Origin: Deltaproteobacteria bacterium
Lineage (GTDB): Bacteria; Myxococcota; Kuafuiibacteriia; Kuafuiibacteriales; Kuafuiibacteriaceae
NCBI GenBank assembly: GCA_040218735.1
Contig: JAVJQW010000011.1
Location: 160,001-224,000 of the forward strand
DNA length: 64,000 bases
Direction: 5' to 3'
The position numbers and the translations under genes were made by a program. The notes beneath the pieces were generated by a model. That model searched no databases. It was given only the letters and a program-made list of their open reading frames with translations, and was not told the origin of the DNA. This document shows, piece by piece, positions 29,855 to 64,000 of the stretch (positions within the stretch are counted from its first letter, which is position 1; every line of letters begins with the position of its first letter).

Positions 29855-30895
29855 TCAGGGGTCGTACAGCTCGAGATCACCGGCGGAGATGTGGATCTCC
29901 TTCGCCTCGAACGGCGCCTCCAGCTCGGGCGCGGACTCGTCCAGGCGCTGAACCAACAACACCCGCTCCACCTTCTTGCGGATGCAGCCGATGCCCAGGA
30001 GCGCCTGCTCGCGGGCGGTACCGCCGGGGGCGAAGCAGCGGACGACGTCGACCTCCTCCGTGAGGCCGAGCATCGCGAGCTCGGTGAAGAGCTTGGCCTG
30101 GGCGCGGCGGCCGGACTGCCGGGTCCACTGCTCGTCCACGTGGATGATCGTGCGCCCCGTCTCGCTCTTGTAGCGGCGCACGAAGGCGCAAGCGTCGATG
30201 CCCTGCCCCGCGTTCTTTCGGTAGACCCACAGCTCGTAGTCGAAGCGCGGGTCGTCCTTGTAGCGCCACGTGAGCTGCTCGACGGACTTGTCGATGCCCA
30301 GCTCCACGCGCTCCTCCGGGGCAGCCATCGCGCGGCCGAGCGTGGCGAGGATCGCGTCGTCGATCGGCACGGTCGTGATCTTCGTGCGGATGCGGCGCGC
30401 CTCCTTCGCGAGTTTCCTGAACGGCGAGACCGCGCGTCGCGACAGGCGCGACGAGAGCCCCTCCAACCCGATGTAGAGGTTGCGGGCGTTGAGCTCACAG
30501 ACGAAGTCGAAGTCGAGCGACTCGAAGAACGGCTGCGCCCGCTCCGTCGCCGCGATGTAGACGTACGCGAGGCCCTCGTCGCGCGCGCGGCGGACGAGCG
30601 CGTCGATGATCTCCGAGTCGACGTCGAGGTCGCCGCTCGAGCGCCCCAACGCCCCGGTGCCGATCTGCCCCGCCGCGTACTTCTCGCCGGCGACGATCAG
30701 GTCCCCGCGCACCAGGCTGCCGAAACCGCAGATGCGCTCCTGCTCCGCGACGAACACCGCGGGCGCCTCGAACGCGCCGGGCGCGTCGACGTAGCGCCAC
30801 TTCCAGGCGTCCAAGAGGTTACGACGGGAGGAGCGGGTCTCGAAGAGCTCCGCGATCCCTTCCTCGTCGCCCGCGCGGTACTCGCGAACCTTCAC
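29855..30895 (-). CDS. GNAT-family acetyltransferase-like protein
   Basis: VREYRAGD, WKWRY, second LTWRY half; GNAT topology by eye. Confidence 0.7.
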   Translation of the reverse strand: MKVREYRAGDEEGIAELFETRSSRRNLLDAWKWRYVDAPGAFEAPAVFVAEQERICGFGSLVRGDLIVAGEKYAAGQIGTGALGRSSGDLDVDSEIIDALVRRARDEGLAYVYIAATERAQPFFESLDFDFVCELNARNLYIGLEGLSSRLSRRAVSPFRKLAKEARRIRTKITTVPIDDAILATLGRAMAAPEERVELGIDKSVEQLTWRYKDDPRFDYELWVYRKNAGQGIDACAFVRRYKSETGRTIIHVDEQWTRQSGRRAQAKLFTELAMLGLTEEVDVVRCFAPGGTAREQALLGIGCIRKKVERVLLVQRLDESAPELEAPFEAKEIHISAGDLELYDP

Positions 30896-30949
30896 GGCGC
30901 ACAGCGTACACACTCGGGGCTCTGCATCGGAGCACCTTGTTCGCGAAAT
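30893..30949. repeat. Degenerate direct repeat, copy 1 (matches 31583-31640)
   Basis: Manual alignment 51/58 columns identical, including an exact 19-mer ACAGCGTACACACTCGGGG. Confidence 0.9.
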
Positions 30950-31008
30950 CAACACGAGCTTCTGACAAACGCCGTCAGATCCCGTGCCCTCGGACTGAAG
31001 GAGGAGAC

Positions 31009-31446
31009 ATGAACAGACTCCCACTCGTCCCTATCACCGCCCTGCTGCTGGCCTCGGCCTGCGGCGGCCCCGACGACACCTTCGAAACGGCCACGCATTC
31101 GTCGGCCCTGACCCGCGAGATGGCGTCCTACCGCGTGCGCGATGGCGACATCCTCGTCAAACGAGATCCATACCAAGTCGAGGTGCTGGAGCTCGTCGTC
31201 GTTCGGGGCGCCGTTTCGACGAACGACGTGCTGACCACGCAGGTGCCGACGCTCGAGTACACGTGCGATAACGACCCGCCGCAGGCCGGCGACGAGTGTC
31301 AGTGCGACAACAACAAGCCGCCTATCTTCGGAGGTACCTCCTGGGATTGCGTGGAGCTACAACTCGACTGCAAGCCGAAGAAGTACGACAGCGGCACGCA
31401 CGAGTGTTCTGACTGGGAGGGCCCGCCCGTGTGGCCGTTTCCGTAG
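31009..31446 (+). CDS. Hypothetical lipoprotein with Cys-rich C-terminus
   Basis: Strong RBS AGGAGGAG, LASAC lipobox, six Cys in the C-terminal ~60 aa. Confidence 0.75.
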   Translation: MNRLPLVPITALLLASACGGPDDTFETATHSSALTREMASYRVRDGDILVKRDPYQVEVLELVVVRGAVSTNDVLTTQVPTLEYTCDNDPPQAGDECQCDNNKPPIFGGTSWDCVELQLDCKPKKYDSGTHECSDWEGPPVWPFP

Positions 31447-61675: not shown

Positions 61676-62383
61676 TCAGCGCGCGGATTCGAGGCGCCAA
61701 TCGACCAGCGCCCACTCGACCCACGCGCACGACCCGACGGCGCTCGTCAGGTGGAAGAGCGCGTGAAGTTGGAGCGCCTGCAGCGGGTGGTCACAGGCGA
61801 GCACGAGGTGCTCCGGTACCCAGAGCACCGCGAAGCCCCCGACGTAGGCGAGCACGGCGACGAAGAACCAGCGGCGTCGATCGCCATCGCCGCGCAGCGA
61901 GAGCGCGCCGGTGCGGGCCACGATGTACGCGACGATCAGCGCGTAGCTCACGATGAAGAACTGGAACCACTCCGCGAACGCGACGTACGCCACCGTGAAC
62001 GCGACGCCGTATCCGGCGAGCGCAGACGCGACGCCGCGACGGACGCTCGAACGACGCGCCGCGAGCGCGTAGACGAACGTGAGGCCGGTGTAGATCATCG
62101 GGAGCTCGTCGGCGGCCTGCGAGACCCTCAGCAGCGTTCCGTGGAACAGCGCGGAACCCAGGCCCACCACGGCCACCGCGAAGGCCGCCGCGGCGAAGCG
62201 CGGCTTTGCCTTCCACGGCAGCCGTCGAGCGCGCAGCAACACCACGACGGCGAGTGCGACGATCGCGAAGCTCGACCACGTGTTCCACCACTCCGCGACG
62301 TAGGTGGAGTACACGTAGTTGGGCTCGCACCAGTCGACGTTGGACGGCGCGCCGAACCCATCCCAGTAACCGCGCTCACCCAT
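61676..62383 (-). CDS. Alkaline ceramidase (CREST superfamily)
   Basis: VDWCEPNY...AEWWNTWS, GSALFH, DELPM, LHALFH; about 7 TM. Confidence 0.85.
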   Translation of the reverse strand: MGERGYWDGFGAPSNVDWCEPNYVYSTYVAEWWNTWSSFAIVALAVVVLLRARRLPWKAKPRFAAAAFAVAVVGLGSALFHGTLLRVSQAADELPMIYTGLTFVYALAARRSSVRRGVASALAGYGVAFTVAYVAFAEWFQFFIVSYALIVAYIVARTGALSLRGDGDRRRWFFVAVLAYVGGFAVLWVPEHLVLACDHPLQALQLHALFHLTSAVGSCAWVEWALVDWRLESAR

Positions 62384-62466
62384 CGCCGGACACTCTTGAC
62401 ATATTCGGGGGACATCTGGCACGCGCGCGCACGCGTCTTACTTACTCAGTTCGACGCACGTAAGTA

Positions 62467-62491
62467 TCGAGAAAAATTGGATTTTTCTCGA
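62467..62491. promoter_or_regulatory. Perfect 11-bp inverted repeat (operator candidate)
   Basis: TCGAGAAAAAT-TGG-ATTTTTCTCGA, 8 bp upstream of the -35 box. Confidence 0.6.
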
Positions 62492-62499
62492 CAACGGGG

Positions 62500-62528
62500 T
62501 TGACGCGACCAGGGCGTATCCGTACGTT
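62500..62528 (+). promoter_or_regulatory. Sigma70-type promoter candidate
   Basis: TTGACG-17 nt-TACGTT; predicted start about 62535 coincides with a perfect 11-bp hairpin (62535-62559). Confidence 0.6.
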
Positions 62529-62595
62529 CGGTCTCGCGACACGGTGAAACCGTGTCGCGCGTCCCCACAACCCTTTTCACCCCGAGAGGAGAGCC

Positions 62596-62721
62596 ATGAG
62601 CCAAGCCAAGTTCATCGTCTGGTCAATGCGCTCCCCTGTGCAGAACGGATTGCACCTCGGGCTGAGCAACGCGGTTGCGTGCCGATACGACGGCACCGCC
62701 GGGACCGACCCCCTGAGCTGA
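62596..62721 (+). CDS. Putative leader peptide (41 aa)
   Basis: RBS GAGAGGAG; MSQAKFIVWSMRSPVQNGLHLGLSNAVACRYDGTAGTDPLS*; terminator 29 nt downstream. Confidence 0.55.
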   Translation: MSQAKFIVWSMRSPVQNGLHLGLSNAVACRYDGTAGTDPLS

Positions 62722-62749
62722 CGGTCTACAACGACGTCGGCGCGCCAGG

Positions 62750-62790
62750 AGGCCGGGTCCCCACTTCGGGTACCCGGCCTTTTTTCGTTT
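62750..62790 (+). terminator. Intrinsic terminator / attenuator
   Basis: AGGCCGGGT...ACCCGGCCT stem followed by TTTTTCGTTT. Confidence 0.8.
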
Positions 62791-62861
62791 CTCCCAAGAC
62801 CCGCGGGTCGCCGACGCTCTCCACGCCCGGCCTCCCGCTTCAACGAAGAAGGAGGTGCGCC

Positions 62862-63098
62862 GTGGCGCACGAGACCGACCGCAACCGCGAACGCCTCGAC
62901 GCCGAATACGAGCGTCTGCGTCGCTACTCCGACTACCGCGAGTTCGTTCGCGGCAAGCGTGACGGACGCCTCGGCTACCCGATCGCGGGGATCTCGGAGA
63001 TCTACATCGAGGGGTACATCCTCGGCCGCATGGTGGCGGAGCGCGCCCGACGCGACACCCCGCGGTTCACGATCAGCCCGGCCCGCCGGATGAGCTGA
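62862..63098 (+). CDS. Small basic protein (78 aa), weakly Rmf-like
   Basis: Strong RBS AAGGAGGT, GTG start; RGKRDGRLG...EGYILGR. Confidence 0.55.
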   Translation: MAHETDRNRERLDAEYERLRRYSDYREFVRGKRDGRLGYPIAGISEIYIEGYILGRMVAERARRDTPRFTISPARRMS

Positions 63099-63111
63099 TC
63101 GAAGAGAAGTC

Positions 63112-63190
63112 GCGGCGCGAAGGACGATGGCACGCAGCGAGTCTTCCCGGACTCCACGCCCGCCGGTGCAACGCCGGCCCTTCGCGCCGC
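63112..63190 (+). ncRNA. Degenerate tRNA-like RNA 1 (CCC in anticodon-like loop)
   Basis: 12-bp closing stem GCGGCGCGAAGG/CCTTCGCGCCGC; arm GAGTC-TTCCCG-GACTC; T-like arm GCCGG-TGCAACG-CCGGC. Confidence 0.55.
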
Positions 63191-63207
63191 TCGAAACAAG
63201 AAGCTCT

Positions 63208-63272
63208 CGAGGTCATGGCCACGCGTGTAGGCGCGTCGTCTTTCTGGGTGCGAAACGCACCCAGAGGCCTCG
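63208..63272 (+). ncRNA. Three-way-junction structured RNA 2 in the HNH leader
   Basis: CGAGGTC/GGCCTCG closing stem; ACGCGT-GTAG-GCGCGT; TCTGGGTGCG-AAA-CGCACCCAGA. Confidence 0.45.
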
Positions 63273-63311
63273 CACCGTACGAAGGAAGACAGATTCAGGG
63301 AGGTGACACCG

Positions 63312-63857
63312 ATGGAGACGCTCGTGCTCTCACACACGTATCAGCCACTGGACCGCATCGGGTGGCAGCGCGCCATCACGCTGTGGGTCCTCGACAAGGT
63401 CGAGATCCTCGAGTCGTACGACGACAAGACGATCCGCTCCGTGTCCATGGCCATCGAGATGCCCGCGGTCGTGCGCTTCGTGCACGCGGTCCGCATCCGC
63501 ATCGGCCACCCGCGCTTCTCCCGCGAGAACGTCTTCGCCCGTGACCACGGGCGCTGCCAGTACTGCGGCAAGAAGCTGACCCGTCAGACCTCGACGTACG
63601 ACCACGTCGTGCCGCGTCGCCTCGGCGGCCTCACGCGGTGGGACAACATCGTCATCGCGTGTCTGACCTGCAACCAGCGTAAGGGTGGTCGCACGCCCTT
63701 GCAGGCCGGAATGAAGCTGCGCTCGCAGCCCGTCCGACCCAAGTCGCTGCCGTCGACGTTGCGCTTCACACTTCCGGCGCCTGACAAGGTTCCGGTCCCG
63801 TGGCGCCAGTACTTCTACGACCTGACGTACTGGCATGGCGCGCTCGACGAGTCGTGA
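63312..63857 (+). CDS. Stand-alone HNH endonuclease (181 aa)
   Basis: RBS GGGAGGT; TLVLSHTYQPL...WQRAI; RENVFARD, CQYCG, DHVVPR, GG..WDN...ACLTCNQRKG. Confidence 0.92.
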   Translation: METLVLSHTYQPLDRIGWQRAITLWVLDKVEILESYDDKTIRSVSMAIEMPAVVRFVHAVRIRIGHPRFSRENVFARDHGRCQYCGKKLTRQTSTYDHVVPRRLGGLTRWDNIVIACLTCNQRKGGRTPLQAGMKLRSQPVRPKSLPSTLRFTLPAPDKVPVPWRQYFYDLTYWHGALDES

Positions 63858-63874
63858 CGTCGTGCGACGAATCT

Positions 63875-63910
63875 GCCGCGGCGCTCCTCGCTCACGGGGG
63901 GCGCCGCGGC
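63875..63910 (+). other. GC-rich hairpin after the HNH stop
   Basis: GCCGCGGCGCTCC...GGGGCGCCGCGGC, no U-tract. Confidence 0.55.
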
Positions 63911-63915
63911 CCTGC

Positions 63916-63992
63916 TACCGCGAGACATCCGGGGATCGGCGCGTTCACTGCCACGTGACCGCGCGAGGCGGGTTCGACTCCCGCCGCGGGGT
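63916..63992 (+). ncRNA. Degenerate tRNA-like RNA 3 (GCC in anticodon-like loop)
   Basis: Canonical T-arm GCGGG-TTCGACT-CCCGC; TCAC-TGCCAC-GTGA arm; imperfect acceptor TACCGCG/CGCGGGG; near window edge. Confidence 0.5.
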
Positions 63993-64000
63993 TCGTGTTC

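Follow-up and report, generated by a model that had tools for sequence, protein, structure and literature searches.

The question raised by this locus is why an HNH endonuclease gene is surrounded by three structured, tRNA-like stretches at a place where no ordinary transfer RNA (tRNA) gene is called. The locus lies near the end of a 64,000-nt stretch of DNA (positions 160,001 to 224,000 of contig JAVJQW010000011.1, assembly GCA_040218735.1), referred to as the window, from a bacterium of the family Kuafuiibacteriaceae (Myxococcota). The window stretch is high in GC, and the genome to which it belongs, G000, has 11.6 Mb and is 96.5% complete. The three stretches around the HNH gene are named el1, el2 and el3, and the gene of 78 amino acids (aa) ahead of el1 is named sp78. 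A first-pass annotation, made from the letters of the sequence, had described the three as non-decoding tRNA mimics, two of them with Gly-type triplets, and had likened them to the bacterial Y RNAs (YrlA).

The locus is probably the decayed HNH end of a long tRNA array operon, in which the elements would work in cis as processing or stability signals. This context, which the first-pass annotation had missed, would explain the elements as remnants, and partly as ancient members of non-tRNA type, of a long tRNA array ending in this HNH gene. By sequence comparison, the locus is homologous with full arrays and collinear with them, and el1 and el2 are conserved as single copies and structurally constrained. 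At least these two elements are, on the same comparative evidence, under purifying selection though they do not decode. We infer that the elements act in cis on the operon transcript. The features of the HNH block are the following.

62862-63098, plus strand: sp78, 78-aa gene, a member of the array operon according to the positions of its homologues
63112-63190, plus strand: el1, non-decoding tRNA-like element (fold, covariance model R2, covariation, identity to the sister species)
63208-63272, plus strand: el2, three-way junction in the HNH leader (fold, covariance model R1, covariation, identity to the sister species)
63312-63857, plus strand: HNH endonuclease gene, 181 aa (Pfam HNH_5, 1.4e-14; HNH, 1.1e-12)
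63875-63910, plus strand: 16-bp hairpin without a T run, beginning 18 nt after the HNH stop codon (fold)
63911-63992, plus strand: el3, tRNA relic (ARAGORN -ps90, compensatory changes, identity to the sister species)

Comparisons were made with the sister species, G011, and with other genomes of the same family, including G001, G002, G004, G009, G010 and G013 (20 examined). Relatives of the HNH gene were surveyed at 80 metagenome loci, 72 species-genome loci and 11 family loci including the window. Fetched HNH loci carry L-numbers, where L001 is the window locus, L004 that of G011, L009 that of G004, and L037 a metagenome locus.

Search for canonical tRNA genes

ARAGORN with default settings called zero tRNA genes at the locus, also with the sequence extended past the window end, and its single call within the window is an ordinary tRNA-Leu far from the locus. 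Rfam searches of 62300-64000 at E<=10 gave no match to tRNA (RF00005, threshold 29 bits), to transfer-messenger RNA (tmRNA) or to YrlA (RF02553). The first-pass annotation had expected canonical detectors to fail, and they do so, with el3 as the only element called under the relaxed -ps90 setting of ARAGORN. The sequence features that it named are all present, namely hairpins with GGT(G/T)C(A/G)A beside closing stems, a 12-bp stem in el1, and the triplets CCC and GCC in 6-nt loops. It was also right that no CCA is encoded after el1, el2 or el3. The 7-mer GGTKCRA as such is not enriched, with 49 occurrences in the window against 43 ± 7 in shuffles. The annotation had further tied its reading to stems more stable than shuffled sequence and to covariation in homologues. 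Unusual stability was found for el1 and el2 but not for el3, and covariation was found for el1 and el2.

Weak Rfam matches in 62300-64000 (Rothia-sucC at 23.7 against a gathering threshold of 64.5, Pxr at 21.9 against 80, and others) were rejected as chance. The same applies to a match of contig C8 to 63889-63943, which sits in coding sequence and has 79% identity.

Homology with full tRNA arrays

Genes for tRNAs were found by ARAGORN within 1.5 kb of the HNH gene at 6 of the 11 family loci, with up to 12 per locus, and most of them were confirmed by Rfam at 32-70 bits. The largest family array belongs to G002, where 19 + 14 = 33 tRNAs stand ahead of the HNH gene, headed by a promoter, an open reading frame (ORF) of 67 aa and a near-identical terminator motif. 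Among the metagenome loci, 48/80 possess at least one tRNA and 15 possess 10-26 tRNAs, and at least one tRNA was present at 23/72 species-genome loci. The window locus harbours the HNH family that is linked to long tRNA arrays (L-arrays), and full arrays show homology to it in both control region and gene order. Nonetheless, it holds 0 tRNA genes, against 33 in the G002 orthologue, and is therefore an array remnant and not an array.

The gene order supports this assignment. In G010, a sp78-like gene is followed by tRNA-Trp, el1, tRNA-Glu, tRNA-Leu and HNH, and in the window sp78 is followed by el1, el2 and HNH. The window order is thus collinear with the array of its relative minus the tRNAs. 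G009 possesses a sp78-like gene, tRNA-Trp and el1 in this order within an array on a contig separate from its HNH gene.

Element el1

Element el1 is closed by a 12-bp stem (63112-63123 with 63179-63190). It encloses an inner hairpin (63139-63154) with the loop UUCCCG, counted as 4-6 nt, and a T-arm-like hairpin (63162-63178) that carries GGTGCAA, has the loop UGCAACG, and abuts and stacks on the 3' strand of the closing stem. The fold has z = -3.95, and 0/200 shuffles fold as well. It departs from a tRNA in having no 7-nt anticodon loop on a 5-bp stem, and in the 12-bp stem under the UGCAACG loop. By eye, el1 shares a GAAGAG D-arm motif and a GGTGCRA T loop with the tRNA-His-like members of arrays.

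Covariance model R2, built from five el1 homologues, found exactly one copy each in 5/20 family genomes. Four of the five matched genomes had been used for training together with the metagenome locus L037, which R2 found again, so that G009 (49.2 bits) is the only match independent of the training set. At the 80 metagenome and 72 species-genome loci, R2 recovered already-known el1 members only. In the alignment of six el1 sequences, 86.4% of the cells are paired, double changes are present in 7 of the 22 pairs, and the covariation score was reached by 0/500 shuffles; slid controls gave scores far below the real one. The borders given to the el1 homologues of L006, L007 and L037 are approximate and possibly off by a few bases.

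Compared with G011, the closing stem of el1 is identical at 12/12 positions, the T-like hairpin with the 3' strand at 30/30, and the interior at 24/37. Between the same two genomes, third codon positions of the HNH gene are identical at 126/182 (69%), and spacers at 11-56%. The inner hairpin shows a compensatory pair change between G000 and G011. The inner loop measures 6, 6, 7, 9 and 9 nt in five homologues and has a core of UCUC or UCCC with no fixed triplet, where the homologues of other genera have loops of 7-9 nt with UCUC. The element is present as a single copy in three genera, also inside intact arrays and directly after tRNA-Trp. Judged from these homologues, el1 has long belonged to arrays of this type as a tRNA-shaped member that does not decode, and is not a fresh pseudogene.

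A T loop of the form UGCRANN, with G for the usual second U, was observed in many array tRNAs and tRNA-like elements (18 places, L003-L104). Among its carriers in unrelated metagenome arrays are tRNA-His-like genes and genes for Gly, Phe and Pro.

Element el2

Element el2 is a junction of three helices: P1 (63208-63214 with 63266-63272, 7 bp), P2 (63217-63240) and P3 (63243-63265). GGTGCGA lies in the second hairpin, which adjoins the closing stem, and an anticodon-type arm is absent. The fold has z = -2.55, with 4/200 shuffles as stable. Covariance model R1 found one el2 copy in 5/20 family genomes, each just upstream of the HNH gene. At E<=0.1, it found no new el2 in the 80 metagenome loci or the 72 species-genome loci except in the sister species of the training set.

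In the el2 alignment, 88.6% of the cells are paired, 8 of the 25 pairs show double changes, and the covariation score was reached by 0/500 shuffles. The covariation of el1 and el2 lies above both shuffled and slid controls. P1 and P2 are identical to G011 at 32 of 33 positions. Across homologues, P1 and the junction are nearly invariant, and P3 is free in sequence and length and is the least conserved helix. A close strain shows both behaviours, having a G-C in place of a G-U pair in P1 and a P3 loop (GGTGCGA) one base shorter. The element is kept in four genera and stands 15-35 nt ahead of the start codon in 4/5 genomes. In G001, a promoter-like sequence TTGTCC-16-TATTAC was seen by eye between el1 and el2; given this site, el2 would begin the HNH transcript there. 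As far as its conserved parts tell, el2 is a structured leader of the HNH gene and not a tRNA mimic.

The idea that P1 descends from two tandem tRNA-Leu genes, through their complementary acceptor halves, was dropped, because in L037 the acceptor stem of the Leu gene beside the el2-like element is different.

Another reading is that el1 and el2 are cis-regulatory switches, with el1 as terminator or attenuator between the tRNA and HNH blocks and el2 as a protein or ligand site in the HNH leader, for example for autoregulation by a tRNA-binding protein. We consider this rather unlikely. It would fit the run of T4-T7 that follows el1 in 4/6 homologues (G010, G009, G001 and L037, but not G000 or G011), the invariant P1 sequence and junction of el2 beside a free P3, and the position of el2 directly before the ribosome-binding site. 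However, the elements match no Rfam family, and no ligand or partner is indicated. A three-way junction inside a terminator stem is unusual, which also counts against switches. The reading overlaps the explanation of the elements as cis-acting signals of an array remnant and is not exclusive of it.

Element el3 and the hairpin after the HNH stop codon

At most orthologous loci, the HNH stop codon is followed by a strong hairpin, which is accompanied by a T run at some of them (L007, L012 and L037) and not at others. A hairpin of this kind followed by tRNA genes is a common arrangement in orthologous loci, and the position that el3 occupies after the hairpin is held by tRNA-Ser genes in relatives. 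Element el3 possesses a 5-7-bp acceptor-like stem and a weak D-like arm of 3 bp. Its long arm is a 9-bp hairpin closed by a 6-nt loop, UGCCAC, and its T arm (63967-63985) is canonical, having a loop, UUCGACU, that fits UUCRANY. Under -ps90, ARAGORN reported 63916-63992 as 'tRNA-???' with the 4-base anticodon (cact), and the G011 counterpart with (gtca).

Identity to G011 is 24/28 in the T arm and acceptor 3' strand and 22/29 in the D-like part. The long hairpin is replaced in G011 by a different hairpin of similar shape (8/26 identical). The T stem shows a compensatory change from G-C to A-U relative to G011, and the long hairpin shows one from U-A to C-G in a close strain. The 63860-64000 region folds with z = -2.67, mostly due to the 16-bp hairpin. 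On this evidence, el3 is specific to the genus and is a tRNA that degenerated recently, with the acceptor stem and the T arm retained.

The proposed Gly identity of the elements could not be upheld, since the triplets vary. The loop of el3 reads GGUCAC in G011, where it resembles an Asp anticodon loop by eye, the G of its GCC triplet is T in the close strain that also shows the pair change in the long hairpin, and el1 has UCUC elsewhere. For the isotype of origin, el1-el3 were aligned globally to 512 distinct tRNAs of the fetched loci, leaving out the element-bearing loci of G000 and G011. Mean scores of el1 were 39.4 for Trp and 37.4 for His against 34.5 overall (sd 6.7), with His not separated from the rest. 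The best isotype of el3 was Asp, with 48.6 against 40.4 overall (sd 7.7). The description as non-decoding tRNA mimics is appropriate for el1 and el3, but not for el2, in which the three-way junction is conserved and the T-loop-like motif is not.

Two further tRNA-like structures were observed in relatives. G011 (L004) has, between el1 and el2, one more tRNA-like element, with no D arm but with a perfect T arm, which is absent in G000. In G004 (L009, ~1380-1410), a bare 12-bp acceptor/T-arm minihelix with the loop UUCGACU is present.

The elements could also be neutral wreckage, that is, tRNA pseudogenes being lost whose structure has merely not yet eroded. The failure of the detectors on all three elements, the fold of el3, which is not above shuffles, and the drift of loop sizes and loop triplets agree with this. 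So do the extra element of G011, lost in G000, and the bare minihelix of G004, and decay is therefore ongoing at the locus. Nevertheless, neutrality is improbable as an account of the whole set. The 30/30 and 32/33 identical blocks exceed the identity of third codon positions and spacers between the same genomes, compensatory changes are present in all three elements, and el1 is a single copy in three genera and in intact arrays, with el2 in four genera. Block identity and covariation contradict neutral decay for el1 and el2, and for el3 it may apply.

A different proposal is that of free-standing tRNA mimics acting in trans, like the YrlA RNA that is bound by Ro60, which was the analogy drawn in the first-pass annotation. 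Besides the tRNA-like shape with non-canonical loops, it could call on a weak YrlA match in the array of a relative (L011 423-474, 27 bits against a gathering threshold of 69), at a site covered by two ordinary tRNA calls. We regard it as highly unlikely, and the analogy fails on several points. Neither YrlA nor tRNA was matched at E<=10 in 62300-64000. A search for TROVE/Ro60 (PF05731) gave 0 matches in the 96.5% complete genome, and the control search was positive in Deinococcus radiodurans. The elements lie within a single transcription unit, between its genes and at distances of 13-40 nt from coding sequences, and own promoters of el1-el3 were not seen by eye or in a simple consensus scan at the locus.

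Proposed role of the elements

The run of up to 33 tRNA genes that relatives possess, ending in HNH, is headed by a promoter, followed by a short leader ORF and a terminator. The window genus would have lost the decoding tRNAs from this operon, and the promoter, leader ORF, terminator, sp78, el1, el2, HNH, hairpin and el3 would be what is left over. In full arrays, the HNH message would have to be cut out of the tRNA precursor, and its ends would for that reason be set by tRNA processing. Once the decoding tRNAs were dispensable, the tRNA shape may have been kept where it sets or protects mRNA ends, with el3 on the 3' side and el2 on the 5' side. Element el3 would then act as a cleavage site of RNase P type, at which the HNH mRNA ends shortly behind its protective hairpin, and el2 as a 5' structure stabilising or regulating this mRNA. 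Element el1 may be a former terminator or processing element, whose U tract was lost so that the single upstream promoter reaches HNH.

Several observations weigh against the array-remnant explanation with cis-acting elements. The stacks that el1 and el2 would form measure 17-19 bp, where acceptor and T stem of a tRNA together make 12 bp, and would thus be poor RNase P substrates. Contigs from RNA libraries (two runs) cover only 63302-63671, at a depth of 2-5 and outside el1-el3. The covariation rests on 5-6 related sequences, with structures derived from the same sequences, and all five R1 matches are training sequences. A sixth el2 candidate, in L037, has the same topology and z = -4.18, but R1 gave it 10.9 bits against 13.2 on the opposite strand. 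The fold of el3 alone is not significant (z = -1.46, 18/200 shuffles as stable), and el3 is confined to the window genus and close strains. The alignment to 512 tRNAs did not establish the isotype of origin of the elements.

If the explanation is right, the window lineage is a natural deletion experiment on why arrays of spare tRNAs and HNH genes travel together. The retained set of HNH, sp78, control region and three tRNA-shaped RNAs would point to a non-decoding role of the tRNA shape in the expression or action of HNH. Elements el1 and el2 offer short, defined targets for its study. Calls of a 'degenerate tRNA' by an HNH gene in myxobacterial genomes should then be read as array remnants, and not as Y-RNA-like genes or integration scars.

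Comparison with known systems

The linkage of an HNH gene to long tRNA arrays, also termed tRNA array units, is already published (PMC8421152; PMC5966550). According to the available parts of these papers, the arrays, the linked HNH gene and dead tRNAs within arrays are in print. An account of conserved non-decoding tRNA-shaped members or of myxobacterial arrays was not found in those parts of the L-array literature, whose supplements may list such elements.

The trn operon of Anabaena PCC 7120, with its linked HNH gene all8564, belongs to the L-arrays, which are patchy across phyla; array and HNH are co-induced by translational stress, and 3 of the 26 array members are called pseudogenes (PMC8421152). 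Similar to the window family, the HNH gene is tightly linked there to a long one-strand tRNA array with some non-functional members, as described in the accessible text. However, the window locus lacks decoding tRNAs, its HNH gene is the last gene of the operon and not upstream of the array as in cyanobacteria, and it has a leader ORF and terminator in place of the 9-nt repeats over the Anabaena promoter (PMC8421152).

The tRNA array units of Mycobacterium share the HNH family and also contain other non-coding RNAs, as reported in the part of PMC5966550 at hand. In contrast to the window locus, those arrays are intact and located on plasmids, phages and prophages, and the non-coding RNAs reported from them, a tmRNA and a ~430-nt structured RNA, are no relics of tRNA size (PMC5966550).

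In plant mitochondria, tRNA-like structures at mRNA ends, the t-elements, serve as processing signals, and tRNAs punctuate transcripts (PMC1920247, in the portion available). Element el3 resembles them as a non-decoding tRNA-like structure beside the end of a coding transcript. The likeness is a mechanistic analogy, not homology; el1 and el2 are without acceptor-plus-T-arm geometry, and cleavage at el3 is a prediction. With the Y RNA YrlA (RF02553), the elements have in common a tRNA-like domain in a non-coding RNA, but they do not match its model, a gene for a Ro60 partner was not found in the genome, and none of them is a free-standing gene.

Control region

Upstream of sp78, the operon possesses a predicted control region with five features.

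62468-62490, no strand assigned: AT-rich inverted repeat, operator-like, just upstream of the -35 element (by eye; at the same place in G011 and G004)
62500-62528, plus strand: sigma-70-like promoter TTGACG-17-TACGTT (by eye; TTGACG..TAGGTT in G011, TTGACC..TAGGTT in G004)
62535-62559, plus strand: 10-bp hairpin at the predicted 5' end of the transcript (conserved in G011; a different hairpin there in G004)
62596-62721, plus strand: leader ORF of 41 codons with a Shine-Dalgarno sequence (19/20 amino-acid kinds)
62746-62785, plus strand: intrinsic terminator, GC-rich hairpin followed by T6 (by eye; the motif follows the leader ORF in G011)

A simple consensus scan for promoters and terminators listed neither the promoter nor the terminator, and both therefore rest on reading by eye and on conservation. 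The counterparts of the leader ORF have 38 aa with 20 amino-acid kinds in G011 and 45 aa with 20 kinds in G004, and the peptide sequences are unrecognisable between the three genera. The chance of such diversity, computed from same-length windows of G000 proxy proteins, is 0.0097 for G000, 0.0004 for G011 and 0.0016 for G004. A hairpin with the leader stop codon in its 5' arm is conserved in G000 and G011, as seen by eye. No convincing conserved antiterminator pairing was detected in the leader region, where reading by eye gave 6 bp only. Copies of the terminator motif also stand ahead of the 33 tRNAs of G002, of an array of eight tRNAs on contig C64 of G000, and of the HNH gene of Corallococcus.

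The control region looks like a ribosome-sensing leader, in which the composition of the ORF is conserved and its sequence is not. Similar to attenuators of the trpL/hisL type, it would have a promoter, a short ORF with a Shine-Dalgarno sequence and an intrinsic terminator ahead of an operon. It differs in that no convincing antiterminator was found, and in the window the operon is now without decoding tRNAs.

The C64 array of G000 (29981-31297, L203) encodes tRNAs for Tyr, His, Phe, Arg, Leu, Leu, Leu and Ser behind the same terminator motif. It is headed by an ORF of 37 codons, and 23 of these specify amino acids for which the array has tRNAs (Ser, Leu, Arg, His, Tyr or Phe). All three of its Leu genes are short (75-76 nt) and without a long variable arm.

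In Corallococcus (L155-L161, ~1409-1481), the terminator motif is followed by a single tRNA-Trp(CCA)-like gene of 68-72 nt and then by HNH. This gene has a reduced D arm and lies ~20 nt before the HNH start. The arrangement, present also in Corallococcus coralloides, represents a minimal version of the unit in a cultured, tractable organism.

At least four tRNA genes of L011 (163-233, 320-364, 1226-1296 and 2158-2228) have a repeat of ~58 nt inserted in their T loop, and the repeat is present once in L012 (2786-2915). Rfam aligns the genes that carry it as tRNAs of 129-133 nt. It could represent a small element with T loops as its target, or else an intervening sequence of an unusual kind.

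HNH gene and neighbouring genes

Full-length orthologues of the HNH gene (49-91% identity) were present in 10 other genomes of the 20 in the family. The protein shares 40% identity, across 89% of its length, with an HNH protein encoded inside a 28-tRNA array on a Mycobacterium plasmid. The sequences closest to its nuclease domain are the HNH domains of IscB and Cas9d, which are RNA-guided nucleases. The gene is still linked to tRNA-like RNAs where only one to three non-decoding relics remain, as in the window and in Corallococcus with its single tRNA-Trp-like gene.

Because the domain is closest to IscB and Cas9d and the gene is linked to tRNAs or tRNA-like RNAs across phyla, HNH may conceivably be an enzyme that works with tRNA-shaped RNAs, with el1 and el2 as its partners or substrates, and not a selfish homing nuclease. 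We regard this as a long shot. Under it, el1 and el2 would have been kept as partners or substrates after the loss of the decoding tRNAs.

A further proposal concerns the DNA itself, namely that the hairpin stretches are recognition or recombination sites at which HNH moves or reshuffles tRNA genes. HNH is the most widespread protein gene in arrays and is possibly implicated in generating diversity of the tRNA repertoire, according to the part of PMC5966550 available. Sequences like a T arm recur on both sides of the HNH gene, and the tRNA content differs strongly among close relatives. The proposal is nevertheless very improbable. The compensatory substitutions preserve pairing and not sequence, and minus-strand folds of the elements are no better or worse than plus-strand folds, with the plus strand folding better for el2 and el3. 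HNH is vertically inherited, and its neighbours (sp78 and an Hsp70-like gene) are conserved across genera.

Homologues of sp78 stand ahead of HNH in G011 (77%), G004 (68%) and G013 (62%), and are also present inside the G010 and G009 arrays, just before tRNA-Trp and el1. No Pfam or NCBIfam family was matched by sp78.

Just past the window end, a gene encodes an Hsp70-like protein of 387 aa (L001 2575-3738) that matches only the N-terminal ~370 of the 596-625 positions of DnaK models. It is preceded by a sigma-54-like sequence, TGGTAC-N5-CCTGCT (L001 2508-2524), conserved in G011. The pairing of HNH with the Hsp70-like gene is kept in four loci (L004, L010, L051 and L006).

Loci of the Archangium/Myxococcus type possess a hairpin motif of ~40 nt (GGGYGCTGGYCCAC ... 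AGGRCC ... GGYGCCCC) ~90-140 nt after the HNH stop codon. It was found in L042, L043, L046, L050, L135, L144 and L149, with no tRNAs nearby. On the other side of the window operon, a gene of the ceramidase family (Pfam PF05875, 2.1e-39; 61676-62422, minus strand) adjoins it and is conserved in G011.

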